Source: a virus (lineage: Duplodnaviria > Caudoviricetes). From it: a DNA stretch of 64,000 nucleotides. Position 1 is the stretch's first letter. Each line of letters opens with the position of its first letter. The notes beneath the pieces are model-generated. The model worked only from the letters and a program-made list of their open reading frames with translations, made no database searches and had not been told where the DNA came from. Location: the IMG/VR virus record IMGVR_UViG_3300008116_000002; one strand, given 5' to 3'. This document shows, piece by piece, positions 9,216 to 56,413 of the stretch. Both the position numbers and the translations under genes were made by a program.

Positions 9216-9231
9216 TCCAAATATCAAAACA

Positions 9232-9239
9232 TATAAATA
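9232..9239 (+). promoter_or_regulatory. T4-type late promoter (TATAAATA)
   Basis: Exact motif upstream of 9266. Confidence 0.7.
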
Positions 9240-9265
9240 ATAAGAATTATATTCTGATAGAGCTC

Positions 9266-11101: not shown

Positions 11102-11102
11102 A

Positions 11103-11537: not shown

Positions 11538-11977
11538 TTACATTTAAAAATTTTACTCAGGAAATTTCAGAAGAAGATATCGATAATCTAATCGAATCTT
11601 TAGAATGGGAAGATGTCATTGAGCTTTTTGATGAGGAAAATTTTATATTAGACGAGGCTATCTCCGCAACTGAAAGACTTAAGCGTGGGCAAAAGATGCG
11701 CTCAAGAAAAGAGATGCTTAAGATTGCAAGAAATATTAAGTTAAAAAGAGCTGCAAATACAGATGTTTTAAAAAGAAGATCTAAAGTGTCTGCAAGAAAA
11801 CTTCTTATGAGAAAGTTTCTGAAGGGAAGAAGCAAGTCTGATCTTTCCGCAGGAGAAAAAAGTGCGTTGGAAGCTAGAATTTCTGCAGCGCTAAAAATGG
11901 CGAAAAATCTTCCAGATAGATTAATGCCAAAGGTTAGAGATATTGAAAGAAAACGTTTGCATAGTAGGGGAAAATGA
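11534..11977 (+). CDS. putative internal head protein, basic DNA-binding C-terminus
   Basis: Starts MITFKNFTQE; acidic N-half, highly Lys/Arg-rich C-half. Confidence 0.6.
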   Translation: MITFKNFTQEISEEDIDNLIESLEWEDVIELFDEENFILDEAISATERLKRGQKMRSRKEMLKIARNIKLKRAANTDVLKRRSKVSARKLLMRKFLKGRSKSDLSAGEKSALEARISAALKMAKNLPDRLMPKVRDIERKRLHSRGK

Positions 11978-12798
11978 GCATGAAGTTTAAAGAACTCAGA
12001 GAAAGTATTACCTCTAGAATGATATCCATGGCGGTGAAACATACTACACCAAAGAAAAAATCCATGGTGAAAGAAGGTGAGGCAGAGGATTCTTTAGCTA
12101 AATCGGATAAAGACAAGTTTAAGTCCAAATCTTATATGGATAATGATGGCGGTGCGGCGGTACCAAAGAACTTTAATGGTGCTGACAAATATATGGATAA
12201 AGGCCCTGCTAGCGGTACTGTAAAGAAAACTTATATGGATAAAGGCCCGGCTACTCCTCCTGTAGTAAAAGAGGAATATCCGCAAATAGGAGATGGAATT
12301 TATCTAGAATTAGATGATGTTTTAATTGAAACAGAAATTATAGATGAAACCGAAGATGGTTTTATTATTTACATGGATGAGCAAAGTGAAACTTTAGTAT
12401 CAAAAATTCCTGAGTTTATTTTTGGGAAAGATACTGTTGATTCTTTGAAAAGAATTAAAGATAGGGATCGTGAAAATCAGGATCCTATGAAGAAAACTGC
12501 AGCTGCTGCAGATTTTTGGAGTAAAAGATTAAACAATCCTACAGGAAAAAATGTTAATGAAGCAGAGTATCAGGGTCGGGATGTTTCATTAAATAAACCA
12601 ATGGCGGGCGATGTAGCTAAATCAAAAGTTTATGTTAAGGGGCCCAGCGGAAGAGTAGTGAAAGTAAATTTCGGTGATAAAAATCTTAGTATTAAAAAGC
12701 ATATTCCTGCCAGAAGAAAATCTTTTAGAGCAAGGCACAAATGCGAAACCCCTGGACCAAAACACAAAGCAAGGTATTGGTCGTGTAAAGCTTGGTAA
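11974..12798 (+). CDS. conserved T4-like phage hypothetical (head-associated)
   Basis: MSMKFKELRES start; C-terminal KVYVKGPSGRVVKVNFG...RRKSFRARHKC..PGPK.KARYWSCKAW domain. Confidence 0.65.
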   Translation: MSMKFKELRESITSRMISMAVKHTTPKKKSMVKEGEAEDSLAKSDKDKFKSKSYMDNDGGAAVPKNFNGADKYMDKGPASGTVKKTYMDKGPATPPVVKEEYPQIGDGIYLELDDVLIETEIIDETEDGFIIYMDEQSETLVSKIPEFIFGKDTVDSLKRIKDRDRENQDPMKKTAAAADFWSKRLNNPTGKNVNEAEYQGRDVSLNKPMAGDVAKSKVYVKGPSGRVVKVNFGDKNLSIKKHIPARRKSFRARHKCETPGPKHKARYWSCKAW

Positions 12799-12852
12799 TA
12801 GGCATCATTTTTTAATAATAAATAATTTAAGTAACATTAAAAGGAAATAAAA

Positions 12853-14157
12853 ATGGCACGTATAACAAACAACTTATTTGAATCAATTCAAAAAGTGACT
12901 GCCGGCGAAGTCGTAGAAAGTTCGGTAGATAAAGCTCATTACTGCGCTACACACGTAGAACACGCTCTTTTGGGCTATGGACAATGTATTTCAGAACAAC
13001 ATGCTGAACCAGATGAGAATGGCGATATTGCATGGTATACTGTTCAATTCCCAACGGGAACTCATAAAATTTCTACAAACCAACTTAGAGTTGTAGAAGG
13101 CAAATCTCATATGCATTCTAAGAAGATGGCTGAAGATACCGAAGCCATCGAGGAAGCTGAAGGCGGAATTCCAAAGACCGACAGACATAAAAAATTAGCA
13201 TCGCATTATGGCGATCCAAATCGCATTACCAGAGGCGATGTCATCACTGCTGCTAAAAAGAATGCAATGAAGGAAGCTAAAGATGTAAGCGCTTTCGATT
13301 GGAAGAGTAAATCTAAGGCACCTGAAAGTAAATTTTCGGCTAAGAAAACTGCTTCCGGAACCATTTATACTAAAAAGTATAAAGAGGAAAAGGATGATGA
13401 TGATTTAAAATCACCTTCAAGAAGAGCTAGAGATTCTGCAGCAGTTCTCGGTAAAGGTGAAGTAAGAAAACAAAAATCCATGAAAGAGGGAACCATGCAA
13501 ACAGTTATTAACCATAATGACTTCGTATTAGAAGTCACAGACAATCCTACGTTTAAAGATTATTTTGCAGCAATGCAAGCAATTGTTCCTTCTCTTGACG
13601 AGAACGTACAACAAGAAATGATTACAATTGCGACTGAAGCCTACAAAGAAGGTTACATTGACGTAATCTTAGAATCAATGGCAAAACAGGCATTTACTGA
13701 TAGGATAAATAATTATAGAAAAGCAGGCTATGAAGTATATAATGAAAAGTATGTAGTGAATTCTGGCGATCCATACGTAGAATATACTGTAGAAAAGAAC
13801 GGCGAAGTAACGAAGTATGTACATACCGGTGTTGCTATGCAAGTTAGTGAAGAAGATGAGATTCAGACTTCTGTAGATTCTCAGGGTCGTATTCGTTATA
13901 TGAAAGATCCAAAGAATCCTAGTCCACAAAAATCATCTGTAGATGATAAAGGTAGACTACAATATAAGGATACAGACAGACCAAATTCTTCTTCCGTAGA
14001 TGATCAAGGTCGTATTCAGTATATGAGAGATCCAAATAATCCTACTCCTCAGTATTCTTCAGTTGATTCTAAGGGTAGACTACAGTACAAGGGACCTACT
14101 GCTGGTCCTCAGCAAACTACTGTAGATGACAAAGATAGAATTATCTTCCGTAAGTAA
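12853..14157 (+). CDS. multidomain hypothetical head/prohead-core-like protein
   Basis: 434 aa; LFESIQKV N-terminus, CATHVEH domain, C-terminal repeats. Confidence 0.55.
   Translation: MARITNNLFESIQKVTAGEVVESSVDKAHYCATHVEHALLGYGQCISEQHAEPDENGDIAWYTVQFPTGTHKISTNQLRVVEGKSHMHSKKMAEDTEAIEEAEGGIPKTDRHKKLASHYGDPNRITRGDVITAAKKNAMKEAKDVSAFDWKSKSKAPESKFSAKKTASGTIYTKKYKEEKDDDDLKSPSRRARDSAAVLGKGEVRKQKSMKEGTMQTVINHNDFVLEVTDNPTFKDYFAAMQAIVPSLDENVQQEMITIATEAYKEGYIDVILESMAKQAFTDRINNYRKAGYEVYNEKYVVNSGDPYVEYTVEKNGEVTKYVHTGVAMQVSEEDEIQTSVDSQGRIRYMKDPKNPSPQKSSVDDKGRLQYKDTDRPNSSSVDDQGRIQYMRDPNNPTPQYSSVDSKGRLQYKGPTAGPQQTTVDDKDRIIFRK
13864..14154 (+). repeat. five imperfect SVDxxGR(I/L)xY peptide repeats
   Basis: SVDSQGRIRY, SVDDKGRLQY, SVDDQGRIQY, SVDSKGRLQY, TVDDKDRIIF; 123-bp higher-order period (13873 to 13996). 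Confidence 0.85.
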
Positions 14158-14217
14158 TGGCGTAAGCCCGACAGGTCGGGGTCGTTAGCCCGATCAAAAA
14201 ATAATAAGGAGAGCAAA

Positions 14218-15072
14218 ATGTCTCAATGGGGCAATTTAGATTACAAAGAATTGTTGGGAACCGCGGCAGTAGTTGAGGGCGCAACTAACGTAACAACAAC
14301 AATCGGTAGCTTTACTACAGCTAACGTAAGACCAGGAGACGCTCTTCTGATTTCGAACGTTAAGTATAGAGTAGCAGCTATTACTTCTAATACAACTTTA
14401 ACACTAAGTAATGCCTATACTGCAGCAACAGGTGCAGGCAGGGCAATGGCTATACAACAATCGCCTAAAGATCTTCTAACCTATGGTTGGACGTCAAACG
14501 TTAATTACGATAACCTAGTAGGTAAGCGTAATGTATTTGGTGTAGATAAATTAGAAGTTCAAAATCCTGATGTAAAAGCCAAAGGTATTAACTCACCAGG
14601 CTGGGTGCATTATAAGACTTGGACAAACACTCAGGGCTCTACTCGTCACAGAGCAGAAACTTTAGTTGCAATGTCGAAGAACTTTAATAGTAATGCTATT
14701 CCTTCACTGCAACTTGATGCACCAGATGATGCAACAATTCCTGATTATGGTGTAACCGTTTCAACAGTTAGTGCAACTAAGACAGGTACTGCGGCATCAC
14801 CAAGTGCAATTTATGCGGCAACAGGAACAGTTATTCCTTCAGGTCCGACCCCAACATATACATGGCAGTTCTCGCCAAATAATATCGTTTGGGTAGGTCT
14901 ATTGAACAACGATGGTCCGGTAAACACAGGAAATGCTACATCGTCAATAACTCTATCTAATATCTACGCAACACCTAATGTTATTAGTGGTTATGTAAGA
15001 GTTGTAGTTGGTGCAGCAGGAACAACTGATACAGCAACATCTGCAGCATTCCAGATTGTAGCAGGTTCCTAA
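14218..15072 (+). CDS. virion structural protein
   Basis: RBS TAAGGAG; MSQWG start, PGWVHYKTW...RHRAETLVAMS motif, Ig-like C-terminus. Confidence 0.6.
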   Translation: MSQWGNLDYKELLGTAAVVEGATNVTTTIGSFTTANVRPGDALLISNVKYRVAAITSNTTLTLSNAYTAATGAGRAMAIQQSPKDLLTYGWTSNVNYDNLVGKRNVFGVDKLEVQNPDVKAKGINSPGWVHYKTWTNTQGSTRHRAETLVAMSKNFNSNAIPSLQLDAPDDATIPDYGVTVSTVSATKTGTAASPSAIYAATGTVIPSGPTPTYTWQFSPNNIVWVGLLNNDGPVNTGNATSSITLSNIYATPNVISGYVRVVVGAAGTTDTATSAAFQIVAGS

Positions 15073-15098
15073 TTAGTGAAATAAATTAAAAGAAAATA

Positions 15099-18002
15099 AT
15101 GGCAGATCTAAAATTATCTGATTTACTTGCCGCGACCGCTATATCTGAAGATACCTTCATTTATGGTATTCAAAACGGCATAAGTAAAAAGATTGGTTCA
15201 AATGTTTTATTCCAAAATCTAACCGACCCTATTCTTAAAGGTAGGGTCGTTTTAGATGGTGTGCAATTAATTAAGGGAACCGATACTAATCAAACTATTA
15301 GTGTAACTAAATCAAGAACTGAATTTAGTACAGGTTCTCTTGTGATGTACCCTAGTCTGCCAGAACCTTCTATTGATGGCGTTATTAAAATTCTAACCTT
15401 GGCAAATACGCAAGGTGGCAGAGTTGAAATAACTACAGCAAATTCTAGAATATTTCCTAATGTCTCAATTACTATGGATAAGCGTGGCGAGAGCCTTATG
15501 CTTATCTATAGTAGTAATTCTTATTCTAATGGCTGGGTTATCTTAGGAACAACACCTGGTCTGAAAACAAGTTTAGAATTACCTGAAGCAAATATTAGTG
15601 ATCAAAGAATTCGTAGAGCTATTAGTGCGGGCAACGAAACTATAATTTATGATGAAGCTAACGGTAAAATTCGCATAGGCGATCTTTCTAATACTGTAGC
15701 GCAAATTAGTTTAGCCAATGTAACAACTGACGATTTACGTGAAGGTAACATCAACTTATACTTCACAAATAATAGAGCAGTAACTGCTCTAATTCCGGAT
15801 TTAAATCAACTTAGAAAACCTAACGCAAATGTAATATACGTTTCAGTAAATGGTGATGACCGTTTAGACGGTTTAACAATGCCGAATGCTATTGCAAATA
15901 TTCATGTTGCATTAAGTAGAGTTAACGCATATTGGACTGTTAAAGTTTTCCCAGGCGTTTATACGTTATATGGAAATCCTGTTACTATTCCAAGAAAAGT
16001 TTCTTTGATCGGTAATGATTTAAGAACTTGTGATATCTATCCTGAGAATCAAACCGAAGACATGTTCTATATGAACAACGGAGCATATGTCAATGGGTTT
16101 ACATTCAGAGGGCATAGAGCAGCAAATCCGAATGATATTAAAAACGGATCTGCAGTATTCTCCTACAATCCCGATGGGTCTGCAGGAAATATTACAACCA
16201 GTCCATATATTCAGAATTGTTCGTCTATTACCACTACCGGCACTGGCGTAAGAGTAAATGGTAATTACGTGGGCGGACTACGTTCAATGGTTCTTGATGC
16301 CTATACGCAGTTTAATCAGGGTGGCATAGGTGTACACCTGTTGAACAAGGGATATATGCAGTTAGTATCTCTATTCACAATTTGCTGCGAATATTCCGTT
16401 CTTGCAGAACATGGTGGTTTTGGTTCCATTACTAACTCTAATAGCTCATTTGGTAATTTTGGTTTAGTTGCAGATGGTGCAAGTGAAACTTTATATTCTG
16501 CAAAAATAATTAGGCAAATTTCAAGTAGAGCAGTTGAAATAGAAACAACAGTTAAGCCAAATATTCAAGATAGATTATTAATGGCTAACTATAATCAAGA
16601 AAAATGTTTTAGAGACACTGGTCTAATTGTAGATTCCTTAGCGTTAGATTTAGCATATCAATCAAATACTCAGTCAAGATTCGCAGGATTACAGTACTGG
16701 GCACAGAGCGTATCTAAAGTATTAGATCAAAAAAATGAAGTTTCATCTACACTTAGATATCTAAAGACCTTAGCTACGAACGTAGTAATTAACAGTACTA
16801 ACTGGGATAATGCTGCCAATGTACCTTTTCAGGGAACAAATACACAAGTTATTTTGGGCGCCGCTCCCGGCGATGGCAACACTTCTAATTTGGTTGCAGG
16901 TGCGTTTGATTTATTTTTAGATGTTTATGAAAATGGTTTATTTGGCGTTACTGACAGGATAATACCTAATTCATATCCCGCAAATTCAAATCCAGTCATT
17001 CAAAATACTGCAAATTTACTTATTGCAAATAAGAACTTCATGCAGTCTGAAGCGCAGGCATTTTTGACAACAAATTTTCCATACGCGACATATATTCCCG
17101 GAACAAGTATGTTCCTAGATGCGGGTAAACTTATAGATGCTATAACTTTTGATGTTTTACATGGCGGTAATAGACAAACTATTACCAGGGCAATATTATA
17201 TTATGATTATATACAGGATTCAACCGCAGTTAGAAATCAAAGGGTTCAAACCAGCGGAGCTTTCTCCTTTATTAAAACCTTTATAGACGATATTCTAACT
17301 CTAACGCCTATTGCAAATACTTATCAAACTACTTATACTCAAAATACTACTATAGGTAATGCAGTAACCAGTAGCGAAGTTTTATATGTAAGAAATAGGA
17401 TTGATGACATAACAAATATTATTGATAACGGTCCTGATTATGAAAATGTTCAATATAATATTGAACCGATCTCGCTTACCGCAAATACTAACCCCAATGT
17501 AGTTCTCGCCACTCAGATTATTCTGGCAAACAGAGATTTTATTAGAGCAGAAGTACTTGAGTATGTAAATCAAAATTGGAAAGATTTAAGTAATGGTACA
17601 AGAAACTTCTATACAGTAAACGAATCAACTGACGTATCTTCTAACCTTTGCATTGTTACTTTTGATGAGAAAATTCTTGCCGTAGATAGACCTTTGGCAA
17701 ATAATAGAATTAGTTTTTATCAGGGAAGTTACATATCAGGTTCTAGTCATACTTTTGAATATGTAGGTGCGGGAACTCAATTATTGCCTGCCTTACCAAT
17801 GAATGGCGGCATACCTGTACAAGACCATGAAGTTGTTGAAACTCGTGGAGGTTCAGTATACTATACAAGTACAGACCATAAGGGTGATTTTAGAATTGGT
17901 AACGAACTACTAATTAATAGAGCAACTGGTACGATCAACGGTAGAACATTTAATAAGAGCTTGTTCGCGGTTATGACCCCGTACATTTTGGCATTACAAT
18001 AA
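15099..18002 (+). CDS. large tail/virion structural protein with beta-helix-like region
   Basis: 967 aa; YVSVNGDD, SPYIQNCSSI, C-terminal STDHKGDFRIG...MTPYILAL; paralog of 25591. Confidence 0.65.
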   Translation: MADLKLSDLLAATAISEDTFIYGIQNGISKKIGSNVLFQNLTDPILKGRVVLDGVQLIKGTDTNQTISVTKSRTEFSTGSLVMYPSLPEPSIDGVIKILTLANTQGGRVEITTANSRIFPNVSITMDKRGESLMLIYSSNSYSNGWVILGTTPGLKTSLELPEANISDQRIRRAISAGNETIIYDEANGKIRIGDLSNTVAQISLANVTTDDLREGNINLYFTNNRAVTALIPDLNQLRKPNANVIYVSVNGDDRLDGLTMPNAIANIHVALSRVNAYWTVKVFPGVYTLYGNPVTIPRKVSLIGNDLRTCDIYPENQTEDMFYMNNGAYVNGFTFRGHRAANPNDIKNGSAVFSYNPDGSAGNITTSPYIQNCSSITTTGTGVRVNGNYVGGLRSMVLDAYTQFNQGGIGVHLLNKGYMQLVSLFTICCEYSVLAEHGGFGSITNSNSSFGNFGLVADGASETLYSAKIIRQISSRAVEIETTVKPNIQDRLLMANYNQEKCFRDTGLIVDSLALDLAYQSNTQSRFAGLQYWAQSVSKVLDQKNEVSSTLRYLKTLATNVVINSTNWDNAANVPFQGTNTQVILGAAPGDGNTSNLVAGAFDLFLDVYENGLFGVTDRIIPNSYPANSNPVIQNTANLLIANKNFMQSEAQAFLTTNFPYATYIPGTSMFLDAGKLIDAITFDVLHGGNRQTITRAILYYDYIQDSTAVRNQRVQTSGAFSFIKTFIDDILTLTPIANTYQTTYTQNTTIGNAVTSSEVLYVRNRIDDITNIIDNGPDYENVQYNIEPISLTANTNPNVVLATQIILANRDFIRAEVLEYVNQNWKDLSNGTRNFYTVNESTDVSSNLCIVTFDEKILAVDRPLANNRISFYQGSYISGSSHTFEYVGAGTQLLPALPMNGGIPVQDHEVVETRGGSVYYTSTDHKGDFRIGNELLINRATGTINGRTFNKSLFAVMTPYILALQ

Positions 18003-18012
18003 AGGATTAAAA

Positions 18013-18375
18013 ATGGCAACGTTAGTTCCCTTAAATACTTTTAAAACAATTGCGGCAAATATTACTACGAATCAAACATTACTCTATACTACTCCTGAAG
18101 AAGTCGCAACAATTATTCTTACAGCTCAGGTAAGTAATACGGGAAGCGCCGACGCTAATGTTACATTTATTCATAGATCCAATGTATTAGTAGGTGGCAC
18201 TAGAGTAATTACTGATACAGAATTGGTTAAAGATTTTGACATCCCTACAAAAGATGCATCATCAGTTATTGTAGGTAAAATTGTTTTAGAAGAAAATCAG
18301 GCAGTTCTGGTTAGAGGTAGCGCAAATGCTACTCTAAAAATTCTTTTAAGCTTGTTAGAAACTTCATTAGTATAA
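18013..18375 (+). CDS. small beta-rich structural protein
   Basis: LLYTTP...IILTAQVSN...KIVLEENQ; paralog of 29743 and 61657. Confidence 0.6.
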
Positions 18376-18379
18376 AAAA

Positions 18380-20149
18380 ATGTCCTTAAAAAGTCTAAGC
18401 GGAAGAGTAAGGGTAAAAAACCCGGCAAGTGCGGATCCGGCACGATATAGCTATTTAAACGTAGAAAATGCGGAACCTAATTTAGGGTTACCGGATGCAG
18501 ATGGCTACATTTTAAAGGGTGATGTAAACGGAAGACGATATTGGACTGCAGGTGCTGCCAACGTAAGACCTTCTCTTAGATATGACTACATTGCAAGCGA
18601 AGGGCAAAATGTTTTTAGTAATACTACCGTAAGTTTAACAGGTAGATCTTTATTCTTTGCAAATACAGATGTAGTTTTAGTTCATATCAACGGGGTATTA
18701 CTTTCTCCAACTGGTAATGTTCTTTTAGGTGCAGAACAGATACCTGACTACACCTTGGGCGATAGTTCTATAACATTGTCCGAAGCTGCATCCGCAGGCG
18801 ATATTGTTACAATTATGCCTGTTCTTGGTGGGTCTAGTGGAGATCGAGGACCAGCTGGACCAACAGGCCCGCAGGGTGCTACGGGTGCAACTCTTTTAGT
18901 TGGTGGACCTACAGGTGCAACCGGAGTTCGAGGAGCAACAGGTGCCACTGGTGCAACAGGACCTACGGGACCGCAAGGCTCTACAGGATTAGGTGCCACA
19001 GGCGCAACAGGGCCAACCGGTCCGACGGGACCTACGGGGCCTACAGGCCCCGCAGCAGCGACAGGTGCAGAAGGTTCGACCGGAGCCACAGGCCCAACCG
19101 GTGCTACGGGAATTGGTGCAACAGGTCCAACAGGTGCCACGGGTGCGACAGGTCCTAGCGGCCCATCGGGATTTATAGGACCATCTGGGCCTTCGGGTCC
19201 TACAGGATCTACAGGTTCGACCGGAGCCACCGGACCTACGGGACCAACAGGGCCTTCGGGACCAACAGGACCATCTGGACCCACTGGCCCATCGGGATTT
19301 ATCGGACCTACCGGACCAAGCGGACCTACCGGACCTAGTGGGCCGACGGGACCAACAGGGCCTTCGGGACCAACCGGACCAAGCGGACCTACGGGAGTCT
19401 CGGGGCCTAGTGGCCCTTCAGGGCCTTCCGGACCTAGTGGAGCAAGAGGACTTCAAGGACTTCAAGGAATACAAGGAATACAAGGATTGCAAGGAAATCC
19501 TGGCTCCCAAGGTATTCAAGGGCCAACAGGACCTACTGGGCCCACTGGGCTTACTCCCGCAATAGGCGGATCGACTACGCATATACAGTACAATAACAAC
19601 GGATCCCTATCCGGAGATTCAAACTTAACATGGACGGCTAGCGGATCAGGTAGAAATTTAATAGTTGGTGGATCAGATGGCACAGCAAATCATGGAATAG
19701 TTTCTAGATTCTTTAATTTCAATTCTTCCGGCACGACGATATATTATAACGTCGCATCGACTTGGATTTCTTTTGATATTGCAAGTGGGCAAAAATTCCG
19801 AATCGCAAACAACGGAGACGTAACTGCGGCGGGTGACGTTATTGCGTATGGTGTATCTGATATTAGACTAAAGAATAATATTAAGGTTATAGACAAGGCG
19901 TTAAATAAAGTATTACAGCTAGAAGGTATAACTTATAATTGGAACAATATTGCTGCTGAAAAAATAGAAAAATCTACAACAGAAAGAGAATCTGGTATTA
20001 TTGCACAACAAGTTAAAGAAGTTTTGCCTGAGGCTGTTTCTGAAAGAGCAGATGGTTATTTAGGAGTACGTTACGAAAAACTAATACCTCTTTTAGTTCA
20101 AGCAATTAAGGAGTTGAAGGAAGAAGTAGAAGAACTTAAAAATCGTTAA
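18380..20149 (+). CDS. collagen-like tail fibre with C-terminal intramolecular chaperone (peptidase S74)
   Basis: Long Gly-X-Y tract; SDIRLKNNI...GIIAQQV...[16 protein letters not shown]. Confidence 0.85.
18839..19556 (+). repeat. collagen Gly-X-Y repeat (GPT/GAT/GPS-rich, ending in GIQ/GLQ)
   Basis: Translated triplets visible directly. Confidence 0.95.
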
Positions 20150-20167
20150 TTTTATTGAAAGTATATT

Positions 20168-21853
20168 ATGAGATTTCATATTTTGGGAATACCTCATACG
20201 GTAACATCTAAAGAATATAATGCCTGCGCATATACGCAAAAGGTTGTTAAATTTGGTAAGATGATGACACAGAGAGGGCATACTGTTATTCATTATGGGC
20301 ATGAAGATTCTGATCTTATTTGTTCTGAACACGTTAGTGTAATTACAAACAAAGATTTAGAAATTGCATATGGTAATTATGATTGGAGAAAAAACTTTTT
20401 TAAGTTTGACGTAAATGATCATGCTTATCAAACATTCTACAAAAATGCAATTGCTGAAGTAGGTAAAAGAAAGCAAAAGAATGATTTTATTTTACCTTTT
20501 TGGGGGCATGGTGTAAGACCTATTTGCGACGCTCATCAGCATGATATGATTGTAGTTGAGCCAGGTATAGGATACGCCGGCGGACATTGGGCAAGATGGA
20601 AAGTATTTGAATCCTATTCTATAATGCACGCATTTTATGGAATGCAGGGAGTCGGGCATTGTCAGTCTGATTGGTATGATGTAGTTATACCAAATTACTT
20701 TGACGAAGAAGATTTTATTTATTCTGAGGAAAAAGAAGATTATATTTTGTTTTTGAGCAGGGTGTACGAAGGCAAGGGTATTCATATTGCAGTACAAGCA
20801 GCACAAGCAGCGGGAGTTAAGTTAATTGTTGCAGGTCAAAATCCAGACAATCTTCAATTCCCTGATAATGTTACTTACGTTGGTTATGCAGATGTAGAAA
20901 CAAGAAAAAGATTGATGGCAAAAGCCAAAGGATTAATTGTAGCATCGTTGTATATGGAACCATTTGGTGGTGTGCAAATAGAAAGTTTATTATCCGGAAC
21001 ACCGACTATTACTACAGATTGGGGCGCATTTACAGAAAATAATATACAAGGTGTTACTGGATATAGATGCAGAACATTTGCAGATTTTGTAAACGCAATG
21101 AAAAATGTGGACAAAATCAAATCATCGGATTGTAGAAAACAAGGGGAAAGATTTTTACTTCAGAATGTTGCCCCAATGTATGAGAAGTATTTTCAAGATG
21201 TGCTAAATGTATATACCGGAAAAGGCTGGTATGAAATTAAAAAGAAAAAGGAACCAAAAAAAATTTTTATAGACTGCGGAACACATATGTTCCAAGGATT
21301 TGAGAAACACAGATTAAATTTAAACATAGATAATAAATGGGTAATACATGGGTTTGAAGCTAATCCATATGTTTACGAAGCAGCAAAAGATTTAAGAAAA
21401 AATTACATATCTGAAGGTTTAAATTTTAATCATCATAATCTAGCGGTAGGAACTAAAACTAAATCATCCACAGTTAATTGTGCTTGGGCAGGATATTTGG
21501 GAGGGTTTTTGCACGTTGGATCCAACACGTTAAAAAATCCTCCAGCAGTTGATACAGTTTTTGGTGAGAATTTTGATTATGTGGAAAAAAGAATACATGA
21601 AATTAATTTTTCAGACTTTGTTAAAAACATATGTGATGACGAAGATTATTCAATTTTAAAAATGGATATTGAGGGTTCGGAATTTGAGGTTTTGGATCAT
21701 ATGATATTAACGGGCGCTATTAAATTATTCAAAGAGGTTTATATAGAATTTCATCAAAGATTTTTTGATAATCCCTCTTTTTATGAACAAAAAATTCTAA
21801 AGTATAAAGAATTTTTTAAAGAAAATAATATAATTCTAAGGGAAGATGGATAA
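20168..21853 (+). CDS. GT4-type glycosyltransferase fused to FkbM-family methyltransferase
   Basis: N-part: LFLSRVYEGKG, YMEPFGGVQIESLLSGTP; C-part: FIDCGTH, GFEANP, LKMDIEGSEF. Confidence 0.85.
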   Translation: MRFHILGIPHTVTSKEYNACAYTQKVVKFGKMMTQRGHTVIHYGHEDSDLICSEHVSVITNKDLEIAYGNYDWRKNFFKFDVNDHAYQTFYKNAIAEVGKRKQKNDFILPFWGHGVRPICDAHQHDMIVVEPGIGYAGGHWARWKVFESYSIMHAFYGMQGVGHCQSDWYDVVIPNYFDEEDFIYSEEKEDYILFLSRVYEGKGIHIAVQAAQAAGVKLIVAGQNPDNLQFPDNVTYVGYADVETRKRLMAKAKGLIVASLYMEPFGGVQIESLLSGTPTITTDWGAFTENNIQGVTGYRCRTFADFVNAMKNVDKIKSSDCRKQGERFLLQNVAPMYEKYFQDVLNVYTGKGWYEIKKKKEPKKIFIDCGTHMFQGFEKHRLNLNIDNKWVIHGFEANPYVYEAAKDLRKNYISEGLNFNHHNLAVGTKTKSSTVNCAWAGYLGGFLHVGSNTLKNPPAVDTVFGENFDYVEKRIHEINFSDFVKNICDDEDYSILKMDIEGSEFEVLDHMILTGAIKLFKEVYIEFHQRFFDNPSFYEQKILKYKEFFKENNIILREDG

Positions 21854-21940
21854 CAATTGAGATATAATTTTGGCGAGTAACCTATAGTAATTGAATTCTT
21901 TTTTTCATGAAATGCTATCTACTATCCAATTTTGGATTAA

Positions 21941-21948
21941 TATAAATA
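21941..21948 (+). promoter_or_regulatory. T4-type late promoter (TATAAATA)
   Basis: Exact motif followed by ATAGAG, as at 53597. Confidence 0.75.
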
Positions 21949-21972
21949 ATAGAGAAAAGTCTTGGAAAAAGA

Positions 21973-24900
21973 ATGACAAGAGCACGAGTATTTTCAAAAG
22001 GTTTGGGTGGCGGAGGCGGAGCAAATGCTAATATAAATTTAGCAGATGTCCTACCTCTTCTTACTACTGCTAATGTAATTGAGATTTTCCCAAATGTTTA
22101 CTACAGTAATGCTAGAGTATTTGCAAATATTAATCTTGCAAGTCTAGATGATCTGTTTGATGTAGGAAATACTACTGGTAAGGTCGCAGGACAAGGGCTA
22201 GTTTGGAATGGAAATGTTTGGACATTTGGTAACATTTCTGCAAATTTAAGTCTATTTACTACTGACGATTTACCTCAGGGCAATACCAATTTTTACTTCT
22301 CTAATGCTCTGGCTAGACGAGCATTTACTGCAGGAACCCCTTCAATTGTAATCGACTGGAATCTAGGTACCATTTCGGCTAACCTAGAAGCAGTTGCTGC
22401 GTCTGCAAATACAACTGATACATTACCAGAAGGCGCTGTTAATCTTTACTATAGAGACTCGAGAGCGCACGCTAATTTAAAATTAGCTAGACTTTCTGAT
22501 TTAAGTGATGTATATACAAAAGGTGATATCCTACCAACAGGTCATCCTGGGGCAGGAACTCCCTTAACTCAAGTAAATACCGGATATACTTTAGTTTGGC
22601 ATGAAGAATCTAATTCATGGATTGCCGGCAGAGTAGTATCTGAAGAATCAAATGTTGCTAATTCTGCAATAGAAGCCAATACTGTATTAAGTCTTGGTAA
22701 TCTTACAACAAATGATTTAGCTGAAGGCAATGTAAATTTCTATTTTACCAATGCTCGTGTTTTAGCCAATGTAGAAAGAATGAGTATCAACGTATTGGCA
22801 GATGTCAATACTTCAGATAGTCAAGAAGGTTACATACTTACTTACATTGGATCTACTTGGGTTGCAAGATCTCTAGGTAATATCTCAAATATTGATATTG
22901 TAGTATCCACAAACTTCGCAAACACCGCAGGGTTAGCTAATGTTGCTCTAATAGCCAATACTGCAAATTTAGCTTTAGTAGCTAGTGTTGCAAACTTAGC
23001 CCTTAATACCCAATTAGCTAATTCTGCGACCTTCGCATTTACTGCAAACGTTGCGAACCTTGCGTTAGTAGCATTGACTGCTTTAACAACAAATGCGGCA
23101 ACACAGGTTCAGAATTTAAATAATTTTACTACTGCTAATTTAGCAGAAGGTGTAAATCTTTACTATACAAATGCAAGAGTTCTATCTAATGTAGAACAAA
23201 TGAGTATTAATGTATTGGCAGATGTCAATACAACAAATGTTTCCGTTGGTACAGGCATTGGCTATGTTTTAACTTGGACAGGTTCAGAATGGGCGCCTAA
23301 TGCCTTGCCCGGTGCAAGCGATACTTCAGGTTTTGCAGAAAGATCCAATGTAGCTAACGTAGCGTTGTCCGCAGTATCTACAGAAAGAGCTAATGTAGCA
23401 AATACTGTTTTAACGCTAAGTAATTTTACAACTGCGGATTTACGCGAATCTTTTAGCAATCTTTATTACACATCTCAAAGAGTACGAGATGATATTCAAA
23501 ATGCTATTCTCAATAAAGATATTGAGATAGGCGATGCAATTGTTAATGGTAATCTTAATGTTAGGGGAAATTTAACATTACTAAATAGCGATAATGTTTT
23601 AGTTAAAGCCAGAAGAATAACTTTAGCTTCACAGGCATCTGGAGTATCCCAGGCAGAAGGCGCTGGCATCTATATTGAAGGTGCCAATGTAGCATTCGCA
23701 TATAGTCAGACAAATGATGGTTGGGGTTTAGATAAAAATCTAACCATCAATGGTAACCTATTACCTGCAGTAAATGGACAATATAACTTAGGTCAACCCG
23801 GAAAGTTATGGAGAGGCGTTTATATTGGCGCCCAAACCATCTTCTTAGGCAATACCTCTATTGGTGAAAATCCAACGGGCGGATTAATCGTTCAAGATCA
23901 GTTTGGTAATCCTGCAGGAATTGATTTATCTAATATTGTTGGTACCGAATATGTTTCGATTAACAGATTAATAGGTAATACAAACCCCGAAATAGAAAAT
24001 CAAGCCTATATCGGCGGTAATGTTAAGCAATTCACATCCGGCAAGACGGGTAATATTTACTTTGGTATTTTAAAGGATGGAACTGTTAACGAATTCGCAG
24101 GTATGCGAGTTATTGAAGCCAATATTGATGGTAATGTAAGAAGTGATGTTCTATTCTACAATGATTATGAAAATAGAAATAATTCTACAATTAGATTGGG
24201 ATTATATGGTGATGGTAATATTGGTTTAACAAGTAATCTTGTTATATTCAATAACATTAATTTAATTGATAGATTTGGTAATTTTGTAGGTAACGCATTC
24301 TTAGGTACTACAGACGTAGCAATAGAAAAAGGCGGCACCGGCGCTAACACCCGACCAAATGCAAGAAGAAATCTATTCTCAGATTTCTCGGGCGGCCTTG
24401 TAGCTAAGATTGGCGGAGCAACAAATACACTTGTAGCAACATCTATTGTTGCAGGTACAGGTGTTTATGTAACGGATGGTGATGCACAGAATGGTAGTCC
24501 AACTATTGCTATTGGTCAGAACGTACATCCTACTGCATCAGTTATATTTAGTAACGTTACTGTTAATGGACAATTAAACAGCGATGACATTACTGCGGCA
24601 GTTATTACCGCAAGAACAGATTTAATTGTTCAAGGTAATTTGACAATTCGTGGTAATATTACTACAATTAATTCTACCACAGTAGTAATTGATGATAAGA
24701 ATTTAGTACTTGCGAATAATGCGATCGATGCATCGCAAGCGGATGGTGCGGGCATTACAATTAATGGTGCCAATGCTACAATTAATTACGCAAGTGGCGG
24801 CGACAAGTTTGTAGTAAATAAAGCATTAGAAGTACAAGGCAATTTAACTTTAGGTTCGTATTCTGTTACCGCAGAACAAGTTAATGTTACTGGCGATAAA

Positions 24901-25587
24901 GTAATTCTTCTTTCATCGGTTGCAGGATCACCAACTTCCAATGCAAGCTTAGTAGTAAATAGAGGATCCAGTCCAGATGTAGATTTAAAATGGAATGAAT
25001 CTACTGATCGTTGGGAATTTACTAACGACGGCACAAACTATTTTGTTTTACCCAGACCAGAAGAATATGACAATGTAATATATGATGTTTCAATACAGAG
25101 TGGAACCACTCCTGCTCTAAGTGCTAATTTAATTCTAAATGGAAGAAAATCTGGTAATGTAATTTCTACAGATAGAATTGAAATTGTTGGTTCTGGTTTA
25201 GTAAAAGTAACAAGAACAAATGATGACAAGTTAAATATTGCAGCAGGCGTTGGTACAATTACAGTAACAAATATTGATAATGCCGGAAATTATGTTCTAG
25301 ATCAATTTCCGCTAGGAACCTATAGATCAGCAAAGTACGTTTATAGTGCTTTAACGACATCATATATTTCTGGCGGCCCACATCACGCAACAGGAGAAAT
25401 TTTAGTATTGCATGATGGTGCAAATGCGTATATTACTCAGTATGCAATGTTGACGTCTACAGACGATGATGTAATTAATTTGGACGCCGACATAAATAGT
25501 GGGAACCTAAGATTGTTAGCAACTGCAACGTCGGGTGGTCATTTGGTTACCTTAAAATTAACTGGTATAACTTATACTGAAATATAA
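21973..25587 (+). CDS. long tail-fibre-like structural protein
   Basis: 1204 aa, Asn/Ala/Thr-rich, recurring TxxLxEGxxNLY(F/Y)TNxR and IDDKNLVLAN...ADGAGITI modules. Confidence 0.65.
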   Translation: MTRARVFSKGLGGGGGANANINLADVLPLLTTANVIEIFPNVYYSNARVFANINLASLDDLFDVGNTTGKVAGQGLVWNGNVWTFGNISANLSLFTTDDLPQGNTNFYFSNALARRAFTAGTPSIVIDWNLGTISANLEAVAASANTTDTLPEGAVNLYYRDSRAHANLKLARLSDLSDVYTKGDILPTGHPGAGTPLTQVNTGYTLVWHEESNSWIAGRVVSEESNVANSAIEANTVLSLGNLTTNDLAEGNVNFYFTNARVLANVERMSINVLADVNTSDSQEGYILTYIGSTWVARSLGNISNIDIVVSTNFANTAGLANVALIANTANLALVASVANLALNTQLANSATFAFTANVANLALVALTALTTNAATQVQNLNNFTTANLAEGVNLYYTNARVLSNVEQMSINVLADVNTTNVSVGTGIGYVLTWTGSEWAPNALPGASDTSGFAERSNVANVALSAVSTERANVANTVLTLSNFTTADLRESFSNLYYTSQRVRDDIQNAILNKDIEIGDAIVNGNLNVRGNLTLLNSDNVLVKARRITLASQASGVSQAEGAGIYIEGANVAFAYSQTNDGWGLDKNLTINGNLLPAVNGQYNLGQPGKLWRGVYIGAQTIFLGNTSIGENPTGGLIVQDQFGNPAGIDLSNIVGTEYVSINRLIGNTNPEIENQAYIGGNVKQFTSGKTGNIYFGILKDGTVNEFAGMRVIEANIDGNVRSDVLFYNDYENRNNSTIRLGLYGDGNIGLTSNLVIFNNINLIDRFGNFVGNAFLGTTDVAIEKGGTGANTRPNARRNLFSDFSGGLVAKIGGATNTLVATSIVAGTGVYVTDGDAQNGSPTIAIGQNVHPTASVIFSNVTVNGQLNSDDITAAVITARTDLIVQGNLTIRGNITTINSTTVVIDDKNLVLANNAIDASQADGAGITINGANATINYASGGDKFVVNKALEVQGNLTLGSYSVTAEQVNVTGDKVILLSSVAGSPTSNASLVVNRGSSPDVDLKWNESTDRWEFTNDGTNYFVLPRPEEYDNVIYDVSIQSGTTPALSANLILNGRKSGNVISTDRIEIVGSGLVKVTRTNDDKLNIAAGVGTITVTNIDNAGNYVLDQFPLGTYRSAKYVYSALTTSYISGGPHHATGEILVLHDGANAYITQYAMLTSTDDDVINLDADINSGNLRLLATATSGGHLVTLKLTGITYTEI

Positions 25588-25590
25588 TAA

Positions 25591-28500
25591 ATGCAAGATT
25601 TTAGAGTAAAATCCGGACTAAGAGTCGATGGTAATGTATATGGCGTTACCAATTTAACCGTTACCTATAGCGGTTCCTTTGGTAATATTAGAGTTACCGG
25701 AGATATTGTAGGTAATGTTGTTGGCACAGTTAGTAGCTTAGCCAATCATACTACATCAAATCTTGCAGAGGGTAACAATCTATATTATACAAATGCCAGA
25801 GCATACGCTAATTTAACTTTAGCCAGTATCAATGCTCTGGCGGATGTTGATACTGTTAATGTTTCTCCGCTATTAGGATATGGATTACTTTGGGACGGTT
25901 CAAAATGGGCGCCAAACGTAATCACAGTTTCAGATACAGAATTAGCGAATGTTGCTAATAGTGTTCTTGGTATTGTACAACAATCTATTTCATCATTCCA
26001 AGCAAATGCTGCTCTCGTATCGGAAGAAGCAAACGTTGCTAATGTTGTTAGAACTTTAGCGAATTTCACTACTGCAAACTTAGCAGAAGGTACTAATCTT
26101 TACTTTACTTCTGAAAGAGTGCTAGATGCCTTAGAAGGCAATAATGTTACAGTTAATAATTTAACTGTATCTGGTGATTTAGAAGTACAAGGAAATATTG
26201 TAACTATTAATACTGCAACACTAGTTGTAGAAGATAAAAATATTCTTCTTGCGAACGGTGCAATTAATGCCGGCCAAGCTAACGGTGCAGGTATTACCAT
26301 TGCGGGTGCAAATGCATCCATTACATATGATTCAGCCAACGATCAATTTGAAACTAATAAAGATTTAGAAGTACAAGGTAATGTAAATATTGCCGCAGCA
26401 ACTGAAGCAGCAAATGGATCGACTACTGGCGCACTAACAGTTACAGGTGGCGCATATATTGCTGGTAATTTGAATGTTGCTGGTGCAATATTCTCAGAAG
26501 CAGAGCCGGTAATTAATTTAAGTGCAATGAATCAGAGCTTGGCGGTATTAAGATCGCAAGTTCTCGCACCTTCAAGTAACGTATTATATGTAAATGGCAA
26601 CGGTGATGATGCAAACGATGGTTTCTCATATGCAAACGCTCTTGCTAATATTCACACTGCATTAAATCGCGCACAACCTTGGACAACAGTTTTTGTTAAG
26701 AGCGGCGATTATGTACTTTATAATCAGCCAGTAACAATTAAGCAAAGAGTTGGTTTGGTTGGTGATAACTTAAGAACAACAACTGTTAGACCAAGTCAAG
26801 CAAACGTAGATATGTTCTACGTTGAAAACGCATCATATGTAACAGGAATTACATTTAGAGATCATATTGCACCTGCTGCAGTATTCTCATATAATCCAGA
26901 TGGTTCCGCTGGAACTATTGTAACAAGCCCGTACATCCAAAATTGCTCATCCATTACAACTACCGGTACAGGTATGCGTGTAAATGGTAATTATGTAAGC
27001 GGATTACGTTCAATGGTTTGTGATTCTTATACCAATACTAATGAAGGTGGTATAGGAATTCATATGTTGAACAGAGGCTATACTCAGTTAGTTTCTGTAT
27101 TTACTATTTGCTGTGATATTGCTGTACTTTGCGAGGATGGAGGTTTCTGTTCTATCACAAACTCCAACGCATCGTTTGGTAGATTGGGTCTATTAGCAAG
27201 AGGTGTTAGCCAGCCGCTAAACTTCGGAAAGTTCGATTCAATCGTAGATACGGATGAAGGAACCAAATATTTAATTAAGGATTTGAATTCAAGACCGAAC
27301 TATGGTGACGCAGTTCTGTTTGCCAATTACAATCAAGAAAAATGTTCTAGAGACACAGGTTTAATTGTAGATTCATTGGCATTTGATTTGGCATATCAGT
27401 CAAATACACAATCTGCTTTCTCTGGTTTACAATATTGGGCACAAGCAGAATCTGCTATTCCAAACCAGGCAGAGGAAACAATTGCCGCATTTAATTATGC
27501 TAAAGATTTAGCAACGAATGTTGCATTAAATATTACCATTACATCTCCAAGACAAGCAAATGTTACCCAAACATCTGGCACTGCTGGGGCATGGGTATCG
27601 AGAATTTCTGACGGATTTGATTTAGTTGCAAATATTATTACCGGCGGAACGATAGGTGTAACTGATAGAATTATTCCAAATGGATTCCCTGCAAATACAA
27701 ATGTAGCTGTTAATGATGCAGCCAATTTAGTTCTTCTGAACAAGTCATTTATTCAGAAAGAAGTAATTGCATTTGTTAATCAAGAATATCCAGGATTCTT
27801 TAGTAATGCAAGTAATTTTATTGATGCAGCAAATGCTGCATCAAAATGCGAAAGAGATACAGGTTACTTACTTGATAGTATAGTATTTGACTTCCTACAT
27901 AATGGTAATAGACAAGCTATTACTTCGGGTGTATATTATTATAATAATGATTTCAATACTACACAAATTGCCAATCAAATTCCGCAAACAACTGCGGCAT
28001 ATGATTTTATTGGATCCATAGTTGATGATATTGTAAGAAATAAAAAGGTTGCGGCATATAATCAAGAAAAATGTGAAAGAGATACTGGTCTAATCGTAGA
28101 TTCTCTAGCATTTGATTTAGCTTATAATAGTAATACGCAATCCAACTTCGCAGGTTTACAATACTGGTCTCAGACATCTTCGGCAATCCCTAACCAGTCT
28201 GAAGAAACTGTGGCAGCAATTAATCATGCCAAAGTATTAGCTGCAAATGTTGCACAAAATATTACTATTGCTTCTCCAAAGCAAGCTAATATTCTGCAAG
28301 TATCTGGTACAGGTGGTAGCGCACTAGAGTCAAATACAATTACTAATAATTATAACTTAATTATTGATATTATTAATAATGGAACTGTTGGTGTAACTGA
28401 TAGAATTGTTCCTAACAGATTCCCCGCTAATTCTGATGTAAATGTTAATAATGCTGCGAATTTAATTCTTTTGAATAGATCATTTATCCAGGCAGAAACA

Positions 28501-29736
28501 ATTGCGTATATAAATCAAACATACCCAGGATTCTTTGCTAACGCTAATAACTTTATTGATCCTGTAAATGCAGAAGCAAAATGTTCAAGAGACGTTGGAT
28601 TCATTTTAGATAGCGTAGCTTTTGATTTAAGACATGATGGTAATAGACAATCGATTCAATCGGGTGTGTTCTACTATAACTTCAGTGCAAACACAACTCA
28701 AATTAATGATCAGATTGTACAGACCGGCGCAGCATATAATTTTATTGGTAGTATCATAGATGAGGTTGTAAGAGGAGTTCCTGTAGCAAATGTAAGGCAA
28801 AATGTCTATACTCAAAATACTACAGCAGCGACTGCCGCAACCTTTGAAGAAGCAAACATTGTTCTGCAGAAAATTAGTTTAATTAATAATATTATTACTA
28901 GTGGGCCAAATGTTGCTCTGGCCAAAACATCATTAAGCGGAAATGTTATTACAATCTCCACAAATGTGTCAAATGCAGTTAAATTAATTTTAGCAAACAA
29001 AGATTTTATTAGAGCAGAGACAATTGAATTTGTAAATGCTACATTGTTCGATCCTCCGTATCAGTCTGTTTATAGACAAAATACTACAGCTTTCCCTGCG
29101 GCAAGTTTAACCGAAGCAAACTTAGTATTAAATAATATAGATCTAATTACAAATATTATTGAGAATGGTGCAAATGCTGCTCCTGCTAGAAGACCAATAT
29201 CTTATAGTACGTTAAGTAATGACTCAAATGTAATTAATGCAGCTAAAATTATTCTATCTAATAGAGACTTTATTGTTGCAGAAGTAAATGGATACATTAA
29301 TAGAAATTGGGCAAATATTAGTAATGGAACAGTTGCTTTCTATACAGTAGCTAACAGCACACCGCTTGTAGGAAATACTTCGTTAGTTACTTTCCTTGAG
29401 GGTGCGATAGAAGATATTACTCCGATAGCAAATTCTACAGTGAGTTTCCATCAACCAAGTTATATTTCTGCGTTGGGTTACACATTTGAATATATTGGTT
29501 CGGGCACTAATTTACAAACGGCATTACCGTATAATGGCGGATTCCCGATTCAAGAAAATGAAGTTACTGAAGAAAAAGGCGGAAGAGTTTATTTCACAAG
29601 TACAGACCAACAGGGCGACTTTAGAATTGGTACAGAACTAGTTTTCAATAGAGTAGATGGAACAATTTCAGGTAGAACATTTACCAAGGCATTGTTCTCA
29701 GTTATGACACCATATATATTAGCAGTCGAAGGATAA
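25591..29736 (+). CDS. large structural protein, paralog of 15099, with four KCxRDxG helical repeats
   Basis: 1381 aa; shares SPYIQNCSSITTTGTG and GDFRIG...MTPYILA with 15099; internal duplication of YNQEKCxRDTGLIVDSLAFDLAY. Confidence 0.65.
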   Translation: MQDFRVKSGLRVDGNVYGVTNLTVTYSGSFGNIRVTGDIVGNVVGTVSSLANHTTSNLAEGNNLYYTNARAYANLTLASINALADVDTVNVSPLLGYGLLWDGSKWAPNVITVSDTELANVANSVLGIVQQSISSFQANAALVSEEANVANVVRTLANFTTANLAEGTNLYFTSERVLDALEGNNVTVNNLTVSGDLEVQGNIVTINTATLVVEDKNILLANGAINAGQANGAGITIAGANASITYDSANDQFETNKDLEVQGNVNIAAATEAANGSTTGALTVTGGAYIAGNLNVAGAIFSEAEPVINLSAMNQSLAVLRSQVLAPSSNVLYVNGNGDDANDGFSYANALANIHTALNRAQPWTTVFVKSGDYVLYNQPVTIKQRVGLVGDNLRTTTVRPSQANVDMFYVENASYVTGITFRDHIAPAAVFSYNPDGSAGTIVTSPYIQNCSSITTTGTGMRVNGNYVSGLRSMVCDSYTNTNEGGIGIHMLNRGYTQLVSVFTICCDIAVLCEDGGFCSITNSNASFGRLGLLARGVSQPLNFGKFDSIVDTDEGTKYLIKDLNSRPNYGDAVLFANYNQEKCSRDTGLIVDSLAFDLAYQSNTQSAFSGLQYWAQAESAIPNQAEETIAAFNYAKDLATNVALNITITSPRQANVTQTSGTAGAWVSRISDGFDLVANIITGGTIGVTDRIIPNGFPANTNVAVNDAANLVLLNKSFIQKEVIAFVNQEYPGFFSNASNFIDAANAASKCERDTGYLLDSIVFDFLHNGNRQAITSGVYYYNNDFNTTQIANQIPQTTAAYDFIGSIVDDIVRNKKVAAYNQEKCERDTGLIVDSLAFDLAYNSNTQSNFAGLQYWSQTSSAIPNQSEETVAAINHAKVLAANVAQNITIASPKQANILQVSGTGGSALESNTITNNYNLIIDIINNGTVGVTDRIVPNRFPANSDVNVNNAANLILLNRSFIQAETIAYINQTYPGFFANANNFIDPVNAEAKCSRDVGFILDSVAFDLRHDGNRQSIQSGVFYYNFSANTTQINDQIVQTGAAYNFIGSIIDEVVRGVPVANVRQNVYTQNTTAATAATFEEANIVLQKISLINNIITSGPNVALAKTSLSGNVITISTNVSNAVKLILANKDFIRAETIEFVNATLFDPPYQSVYRQNTTAFPAASLTEANLVLNNIDLITNIIENGANAAPARRPISYSTLSNDSNVINAAKIILSNRDFIVAEVNGYINRNWANISNGTVAFYTVANSTPLVGNTSLVTFLEGAIEDITPIANSTVSFHQPSYISALGYTFEYIGSGTNLQTALPYNGGFPIQENEVTEEKGGRVYFTSTDQQGDFRIGTELVFNRVDGTISGRTFTKALFSVMTPYILAVEG

Positions 29737-55299: not shown

Positions 55300-55314
55300 C
55301 TAAAAGAAAAATAT

Positions 55315-56412: not shown

Positions 56413-56413
56413 A

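Follow-up and report, generated by a model that had tools for sequence, protein, structure and literature searches.

Phycobiliprotein-like domains with a conserved candidate bilin-attachment site in two predicted fibre proteins of a T4-like phage

Why should the fibres of a phage that probably does not infect a cyanobacterium carry the motif at which phycobiliproteins hold their pigment? The question is raised by a stretch of 64,000 nucleotides of viral DNA (Duplodnaviria; Caudoviricetes; IMG/VR record IMGVR_UViG_3300008116_000002), called the window in the following, in which two long open reading frames (ORFs) encode the putative fibre proteins P0001 and P0002 with repeated copies of the sequence KCxRDxG. 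Comparing these repeats with their relatives leaves us highly confident that they form a divergent and truncated branch of the phycobiliprotein/bilin-binding-globin family and are not canonical members of it. A further reading, to which we give an even chance, sees in them domains of a fibre shaft that go back to bilin-binding globins and at whose C-x-R-D a bilin is still bound.

A six-frame regular-expression search finds KC.RD.G exactly five times in the window, always on the + strand, namely once in ORF 15099-18002 (P0001, Cys503, codon 16605) and four times in ORF 25591-29736 (P0002, Cys585, 753, 828 and 998, codons 27343, 27847, 28072 and 28582). This agrees exactly with an earlier note on this DNA, which had listed five such motifs at the same cysteine codons. 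In 200 mononucleotide shuffles of the window the motif occurred 0.015 times on average and at most once, and none of 20000 residue shuffles of P0001 and P0002 contained it, but the five copies are paralogous repeats and hence not five independent events. The two motif contexts quoted in the earlier note are likewise exact and follow the pattern (F/Y)xNQxYPG-x16-KCxRDxG. Its sixth copy, said to have lost the cysteine, is also real: a deletion of 11 residues near residue 672 of P0001 took out K-C-x-R-D. The likeness to the corresponding context of phycocyanin alpha, with a loop differing by one residue, was correctly seen as well, the distance from P to KC being 18 in 1f99_A and 17 in the phage domain.

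A single domain comprises about 120 residues. Two of them, an A-type and a B-type domain, make up a repeat unit of about 245 residues with two motif-bearing helices. The two ORFs and their six domains are the following.

15099..18002, + strand: fibre protein P0001, 967 amino acids (ORF; PHROG tail-fibre families phrog_17885, 5342 and 9851)
16578..16928, + strand: A-type domain of P0001 with intact KCFRDTG, Cys503 codon 16605-16607 (match of the helix-E hidden Markov model (HMM) at residues 499-538)
16929..17318, + strand: B-type domain of P0001, K-C-x-R-D deleted (11 residues; BLASTP against both B-type domains of P0002)
25591..29736, + strand: fibre protein P0002, 1381 amino acids (ORF; PHROG matches)
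27316..27663, + strand: domain A1 of P0002, residues 576-691, KCSRDTG, Cys585 codon 27343 (motif, helix-E HMM; AlphaFold2 (AF2) model)
27664..28056, + strand: domain B1 of P0002, residues 692-822, KCERDTG, Cys753 codon 27847 (PF00502 with 15.5 bits, profile positions 33-89; AF2 model)
28048..28395, + strand: domain A2 of P0002, about residues 820-935, KCERDTG, Cys828 codon 28072 (helix-E HMM match 824-864)
28396..28788, + strand: domain B2 of P0002, about residues 936-1066, KCSRDVG, Cys998 codon 28582 (PF00502 with 18.7 bits, E 0.0018, profile positions 33-88; HMM match 995-1035)

In five of these six copies C-x-R-D stands at the start of helix E. The degenerate B-type domain of P0001 retains the remainder of this helix, GKLIDAITFDVLHGGNRQ.

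Residues 560-1010 of P0002 were searched against 1.84 billion cluster representatives. Of the resulting family of 759 proteins many are very large, with 3000-6400 residues, and can show as many as about 30 matched stretches each. In the family alignment of 141 units (alignment A1) the residues C, R and D are nearly invariant at both sites, and hhalign shows the A-type and B-type halves to be homologous (99.9%, 82 columns). An AF2 model of the A+B unit computed with the family alignment reached a pLDDT of 91.6 and a pTM of 0.88, while a model of P0002 residues 560-1010 from the single sequence was unusable (pLDDT 33.8). Each half of the model shows a long helix beginning at the cysteine, a short helix, a beta-hairpin and a second long helix (in A1: helix 18-37, short helix, beta-hairpin, helix 63-81), and the B-type half has two extra helices ahead of the cysteine helix. 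According to the model the B-type domain would thus consist of helices A-B-loop-E-F', a beta-hairpin and a G-like helix and the A-type domain of E-F', hairpin and G-like helix only, and one A and one B domain would pack as a compact unit of about 245 residues. A complex prediction with three copies of the unit returned a score of 0.00, which is no verdict and not evidence either way.

The relationship to phycobiliproteins is seen at the sequence level from both sides. The Pfam Phycobilisome model PF00502 (profile length 155, gathering cut-off 22.2 bits) matches 45 of the 141 A+B units at E<=0.1, with a best value of 1e-7, while any other Pfam family matches two units at most. By subtype, 10 of 141 A-type and 30 of 144 B-type domains are matched. 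Five full-length relatives lie above the cut-off (51.5, 38.6, 37.7, 29.7 and 26.6 bits; best E 1.4e-13), with matched stretches within profile positions 32-141 of 155, which correspond to helices B to G; the best of them covers positions 38-141. Six-frame searches found a fibre ORF with 26.2 bits on a relative's contig, and no PF00502 match in Pelagibacter phage Mosig. Among the 120 closest homologues, about half have PF00502 as their sole precomputed Pfam domain, and those that carry a name are almost all called 'hypothetical protein'. In the reciprocal direction, profiles of the phage domain were searched against 177,635 PDB sequences, and phycobiliproteins made up the top 31 of 37 matches in one search and 33 of 33 in another. 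Almost all of these are phycocyanin alpha chains (best E 9e-4); the phage cysteine is aligned on Cys84, and C, R and D of the phage domains fall on Cys84, Arg86 and Asp87.

The predicted structure fits into this picture in part. When the candidates from Foldseek were realigned, the top 50 chains were all phycobiliproteins, and the top 50 of an exhaustive VIA search (Z up to 4.6) include phycobiliproteins, ApcE, photocobilin globins and other globins. Model residues 131-223 (B1) superpose on phycobiliprotein residues 1-121 with Z 4.3-4.6 and a root-mean-square deviation of 2.5-3.5 A over 83-98 residues. The superposed part corresponds to helices A, B, E and F', and the register is the same as in the sequence alignment.

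It has to be asked whether a convergent helix-loop-helix pattern and a chance CxRDxG could produce such a likeness in the absence of common descent. The window's own proteins indeed stay below the PF00502 cut-off (P0002 residues 954-1010 with 18.7 bits, E 0.0018, and residues 709-766 with 15.5 bits) and P0001 has no PF00502 match; Z scores up to 4.6 are non-specific, as helical models often score higher by chance; and the reciprocal searches reach E-values of about 1e-3 at best. The fold as a whole gives no significant match either: the Foldseek comparison with phycobiliproteins proposed in the earlier note gave no match at E<=1e-3, all values against the PDB being 0.2 or higher. Nothing significant was found in the AFDB clusters or the ESM Atlas, and a search of BFVD gave one borderline match (E 7.8e-4) and weaker ones, to structural proteins of uncultured phages and cyanophages. 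However, convergence does not account for relatives that reach 51.5 bits over positions 38-141 of the profile, for PF00502 being the only recurrent Pfam family, or for the common register of sequence and structure alignments, and we regard it as highly improbable. The domains are homologous to phycobiliproteins. The earlier note's description as phycobilin-fold repeats therefore stands with respect to the sequence, by PF00502 and the reciprocal profile search, but has to be restricted with respect to the fold, which is only partly phycobiliprotein-like and lacks a global Foldseek match.

If the domains are such relatives, the fate of the pigment site becomes important. CXRD is the named bilin-attachment motif of phycobiliproteins and of BBAG-1/3, the latter binding bilins without lyases (PMC10151467). 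Among 1428 helix-E copies from 150 cluster representatives the cysteine is conserved in 98.3%, the arginine in 97.7% and the aspartate in 99.6%, and 1376 copies have the complete CRD triad. Loss of the cysteine and loss of the arginine go together (Fisher p 1.5e-4). The CxRDxG motif accounts for 43% of all cysteines in the family proteins, and in the 112 closer homologues the motif context occurs 548 times with and never without cysteine. A cysteine that is not conserved would have spoken against the proposal of the earlier note; across the domain family it is almost invariant.

A conserved cysteine might also serve to staple the fibre, either by disulfides between helix-E copies or chains or, together with the nearby aspartates, as a metal site. 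There are exactly two conserved cysteines per A+B unit and the cysteine is followed by an acidic D-x5-D-x4-D pattern, and the T4 fibres gp12 and gp37 are known to bind metal ions. However, in all six units in which one cysteine is replaced the other one is retained, and P0001 keeps its A-type cysteine despite the deletion of the B-type motif. An obligate disulfide between the two cysteines of a unit is therefore disfavoured, and we discarded this variant as unlikely. In addition, fibres fold in a reducing cytoplasm, and neither cross-links nor metal would explain the specific similarity to phycobiliproteins along helices A to G. We thus consider a cross-link or metal site improbable.

Bilin binding requires a bilin, and we looked in the genomes of carriers for its source. 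With the unit of a family member as tblastn query, 204 of 50,697 cultured phage records were matched, all of them cyanophages; the 4482-residue short tail fibre of Synechococcus phage S-RSM4, for instance, has six KCxRD copies. Carriers and phages relevant for comparison are distributed as follows.

Cyanophages DSL-LC03, S-ShM2 and S-RSM4: psbA and psbD present, domain present, reductase absent (heme oxygenase not searched)
Relatives G001 (222 kb) and G005 (190 kb), both 100% complete: psbA absent, domain present, heme oxygenase and reductase present
Contigs 77%, 65% and 31% complete: psbA absent, domain present, heme oxygenase and reductase present
Remaining 15 of 20 large domain-bearing contigs (at most 58% complete): psbA absent, domain present, heme oxygenase and reductase not seen
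Pelagibacter phage Mosig: psbA absent, domain absent, heme oxygenase and reductase present
A relative 69% complete: domain not seen, reductase present

None of the 20 large uncultured domain-bearing contigs has psbA, and its absence from the complete relatives agrees with the remark in the earlier note that this phage does not look cyanobacterial. Adjacent genes for heme oxygenase and bilin reductase occur in all four of these contigs that are at least 65% complete, plus in one that is 31% complete. Thus the evaluable carriers all have a source of bilin, be it their own cassette or the host. In G001 the cassette lies at 134-135 kb, directly before gp33-gp59 and well away from the fibre genes at 16 kb and 205 kb. 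The closest cultured homologue of the relatives' reductase is that of Mosig, with 40% identity.

On many freshwater contigs the heme oxygenase and bilin reductase genes overlap and lie just upstream of gp33 (late-transcription coactivator), gp59 and gp32 (L080 1486-2689; L247, L249, L255). This insertion point before gp33 is conserved, and the upstream neighbours vary between a 2OG-Fe(II) oxygenase, a cell-wall hydrolase and a PD-(D/E)XK nuclease. In Mosig (L159 1-3579) the genes for heme oxygenase and bilin reductase lie by the neck genes in a single block together with those for ferrochelatase, endonuclease V and three 2OG-Fe(II) oxygenases. Matches to the phage-type reductase in bacterial genomes were restricted to the short contigs L251 and L252, assigned to a Glaciecola and a Rhodobacteraceae metagenome-assembled genome (39-40% identity), which could be phage contigs binned together with bacterial ones.

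While the homology, the near-invariance of C, R and D and the distribution of the domain are shown by these comparisons, bilin binding on the virion we infer from indirect evidence of this kind, to which there are counter-examples, and any role of it in light sensing, shielding or folding would be a further inference. The domains would descend from the phycobiliprotein/bilin-binding-globin family, two of them in P0001 and four in P0002. In the five that keep C-x-R-D at the start of helix E, the cysteine would form a thioether to a bilin and the arginine and aspartate would contact the pigment, as they do in phycobiliproteins and BBAG-1/3. Late in infection the newly made fibre domains would take up the bilin without a known lyase, probably autocatalytically like BBAGs and ApcE. 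This bilin, biliverdin or a phycobilin, would come from the heme oxygenase and ferredoxin-dependent bilin reductase of the phage itself or, in cyanophages, from the host, and virions with pigmented fibres would be the outcome. Light-gated adsorption, photoprotection, or help with folding or rigidity may be imagined as the purpose of the pigment, but this is speculation. Tentatively, and with somewhat less than an even chance in our estimate, we propose that phage fibres carry covalent bilins, the CxRD domains being the missing acceptor for the pigments of heme oxygenase and PcyX/PcyA where the phage has a non-photosynthetic host, or for host phycobilins in cyanophages, and serving the virion as photoreceptor or photoprotectant, e.g. 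in light-gated adsorption.

Besides the sub-threshold scores and the fold comparisons discussed above, several observations weigh against this proposal. In the AF2 model a beta-hairpin follows helix F' where phycobiliproteins have their F helix, and helix H is missing. The family has extra invariant residues that are not found in phycobiliproteins, namely, counted from the cysteine, Asp at +9 and +14, Asn near +20 and Tyr near +30, and therefore some function of the domain's own is indicated. The link to bilin synthesis has exceptions: in Mosig heme oxygenase and reductase occur without the domain, the relative of 69% completeness has the reductase and shows no domain, and a domain-bearing contig of 58% completeness shows no reductase. 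Only a few genomes can be evaluated, many of them related, and the cultured carriers all come from one virus family; therefore shared descent could yield the pattern of co-occurrence. Lyases of the CpeT type (PF06206) are absent from five records, namely Mosig and four domain-bearing contigs, among them the two complete relatives, and those of the CpeS type (PF09367) are absent from 20 domain-bearing contigs, E/F-type lyases not having been searched.

In a search of viral contigs that started from the reductase, the domain was found in three of 13 large contigs, most of them less than 45% complete. A control set of T4-like contigs based on gp23 consisted mostly of small fragments of close relatives and was of no use for a 2x2 test. 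In S-RSM4 (L254) a CpeT-like bilin-lyase homologue (6230-6754) precedes the giant short-tail-fibre gene (7708-21156) by about 1 kb, with only tRNAs and an HNH endonuclease between them; this proximity may be coincidence, or the gene may encode a lyase for the fibre.

Such observations could be understood if the domain were a structural relic, i.e. a descendant of the phycobiliproteins or bilin-binding globins that is now no more than a rigid helical bead of the fibre shaft. The departure of the fold after F', the additional invariant residues, the cassette of Mosig without the domain, and the missing lyases in the CpeT and CpeS searches all fit this explanation. C-x-R-D and the extra Asp, Asn and Tyr would then be needed to fold the domain, to cap its helices or for the contact of domains or chains with one another, and the cassette would have an unrelated role such as iron release, heme turnover, or the signalling of host phytochromes or BBAGs; alternative roles of the cassette are discussed in PMC11480375. 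On the other hand, a purely structural position would not usually keep a free cysteine in 98% of 1428 copies at an overall identity of only about 30%, conservation is highest in just those three residues by which the bilin site is defined, with Cys and Arg being lost together, and a source of bilin is at hand in all evaluable carriers. We therefore judge the relic to be a possible but rather unlikely explanation.

Returning to fibres that still bind a bilin, it should be said what is new here. Our literature searches turned up no account of phycobiliprotein-like domains in the structural proteins of phages, although automatic PF00502 labels are already attached to many database homologues. The window adds short versions with two and four domains in a T4-like phage and a natural deletion of the motif in one copy, and leads to the A/B subtype anatomy, to site statistics for the whole family and to explicit counter-examples to a strict link with bilin synthesis. 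The role of hemO-pcyX/pcyA cassettes in phages of heterotrophs has been stated to be unknown, and light harvesting called unlikely (PMC11480375). A fibre with a pigment site would offer a concrete acceptor for the products of these puzzling heme oxygenase and bilin reductase genes, and also a possible photoreceptor for the cyanophages that adsorb only in light. If true, a virus particle bearing a pigment would be a novelty, and the domain would furthermore broaden the evolutionary range of the phycobiliprotein/BBAG family, the origin of which is under debate (PMC10151467). Cultured carriers such as S-RSM4 exist, and therefore a test for the pigment is ordinary bench work.

P0001 and P0002 are, as far as the sequences tell, paralogues and belong to the late fibre proteins of a T4-like myovirus from freshwater. 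They share 50% identity over 527 residues (BLASTP), their C-termini being 45% identical. The assignment as T4-like fibres is based on matches to phrog_17885, 5342, 4527, 9851 and 13163 and on their location in the late structural gene block. P0002 is encoded without any change by at least 23 metagenome contigs, the longest of about 213 kb, and a megablast of the gene revealed no near relative at the DNA level among the cultured phage records. In P0001 an N-terminal region and a beta-helix-like domain precede the two phycobiliprotein-like domains, the first intact and the second degenerate, and helical repeats lead over to the conserved C-terminal fibre domain. P0002 begins with N-terminal NLYYT-type repeats and continues with a beta-helix-like domain, two tandem A+B double domains (four domains in total), helical repeats and the conserved C-terminal fibre domain. 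Outside the phycobiliprotein-like domains the following parts can be delimited.

15807..16508, + strand: beta-helix-like domain of P0001, about residues 237-470 (aligns with residues 323-555 of P0002; PHROG tail-fibre stretch 365-467)
26557..27255, + strand: beta-helix-like domain of P0002, about residues 323-555 (PHROG match and alignment with P0001)
28789..29736, + strand: helical ANKDFIxAE repeats and conserved C-terminal fibre domain of P0002 (phrog_17885 positions 872-1001 correspond to residues 1250-1380)

Of the other cysteines in P0001 and P0002 most lie in the two beta-helix-like domains, among them two conserved neighbouring ones (CC in FTICC), and some relatives carry DUF1565 or Mtd_N.

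The window represents the late structural region of a T4-like myovirus, with collagen-like fibres and several proteins of more than 1000 residues matching PHROG tail-fibre families, and further encodes a fibre-assembly-like protein, a ribonucleotide reductase and four tRNAs. The tRNA genes (Thr-TGT, Gly-TCC, Leu-TAA and Met-CAT) are located at its start (183-2761). The region 18380-21853 comprises a collagen-like fibre protein with many PHROG tail-fibre matches and then a protein of 561 residues, the first 358 of which match the phage glycosyltransferase family phrog_3408 (E 7e-194). Three consecutive paralogues with a Gly_rich_2 domain (PF21722) are found at 54235-57819, followed at 58082-61084 by a protein of 1000 residues with four concanavalin/LamG-like domains. 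The paralogues and the LamG-like protein are probably further host-recognition proteins.

Compared with known systems, the phage domains share with the phycobiliproteins (PF00502; the closest by sequence are C-/R-phycocyanin alpha, e.g. 1f99_A and 6jpr_A) the helices A-B, a loop and the E-F' segment in the same register, as well as K-C-x-R-D-[IV]-G-[YF] opening helix E, with the cysteine on Cys84 and a GG turn afterwards, the spacing from Y/F-P to KC being one residue off. While phycobiliproteins are free alpha and beta subunits of 160 residues, the phage versions are tandem domains within fibre proteins of 1000 to more than 6000 residues. They are without the X-Y hairpin and the H helix, and have instead a beta-hairpin after F', as well as Asp, Asn and Tyr as additional invariant residues. 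They are carried by phages, many of which lack photosynthesis genes, and no lyase genes of the CpeT or CpeS type were found.

The hemO-pcyX and hemO-pcyA cassettes (PMC11480375; Mosig) are matched in the complete relatives by an overlapping pair of heme oxygenase and reductase genes. However, such a cassette is a candidate source of the pigment and not the domain, and Mosig manages without a phycobiliprotein-like fibre domain.

The giant virion structural or short tail fibre proteins of cyanomyoviruses (SRSM4_214 of S-RSM4, SShM2_093 of S-ShM2, and DSL-LC03) belong to the same domain family, have KCxRD copies and are likewise fibre or baseplate-associated proteins of T4-like phages. These phages infect Synechococcus and carry psbA and psbD but no bilin reductase, whereas the proteins of the window are shorter, have only two and four domains and come from a lineage without psbA.

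BBAG-1 and BBAG-3 of heterotrophic bacteria, with which we compare the phage domains by the published description (PMC10151467), are stand-alone globins encoded next to the reductase, while the phage domains are fused into fibres and the cassette lies far off before gp33-gp59-gp32. Nevertheless they are, like the phage domains, phycobiliprotein paralogues outside photosynthesis with CXRD in genomes with heme oxygenase and bilin reductase, and their lyase-free attachment of bilins (PMC10151467) is the mechanism which we propose for the domains of the phage fibres.

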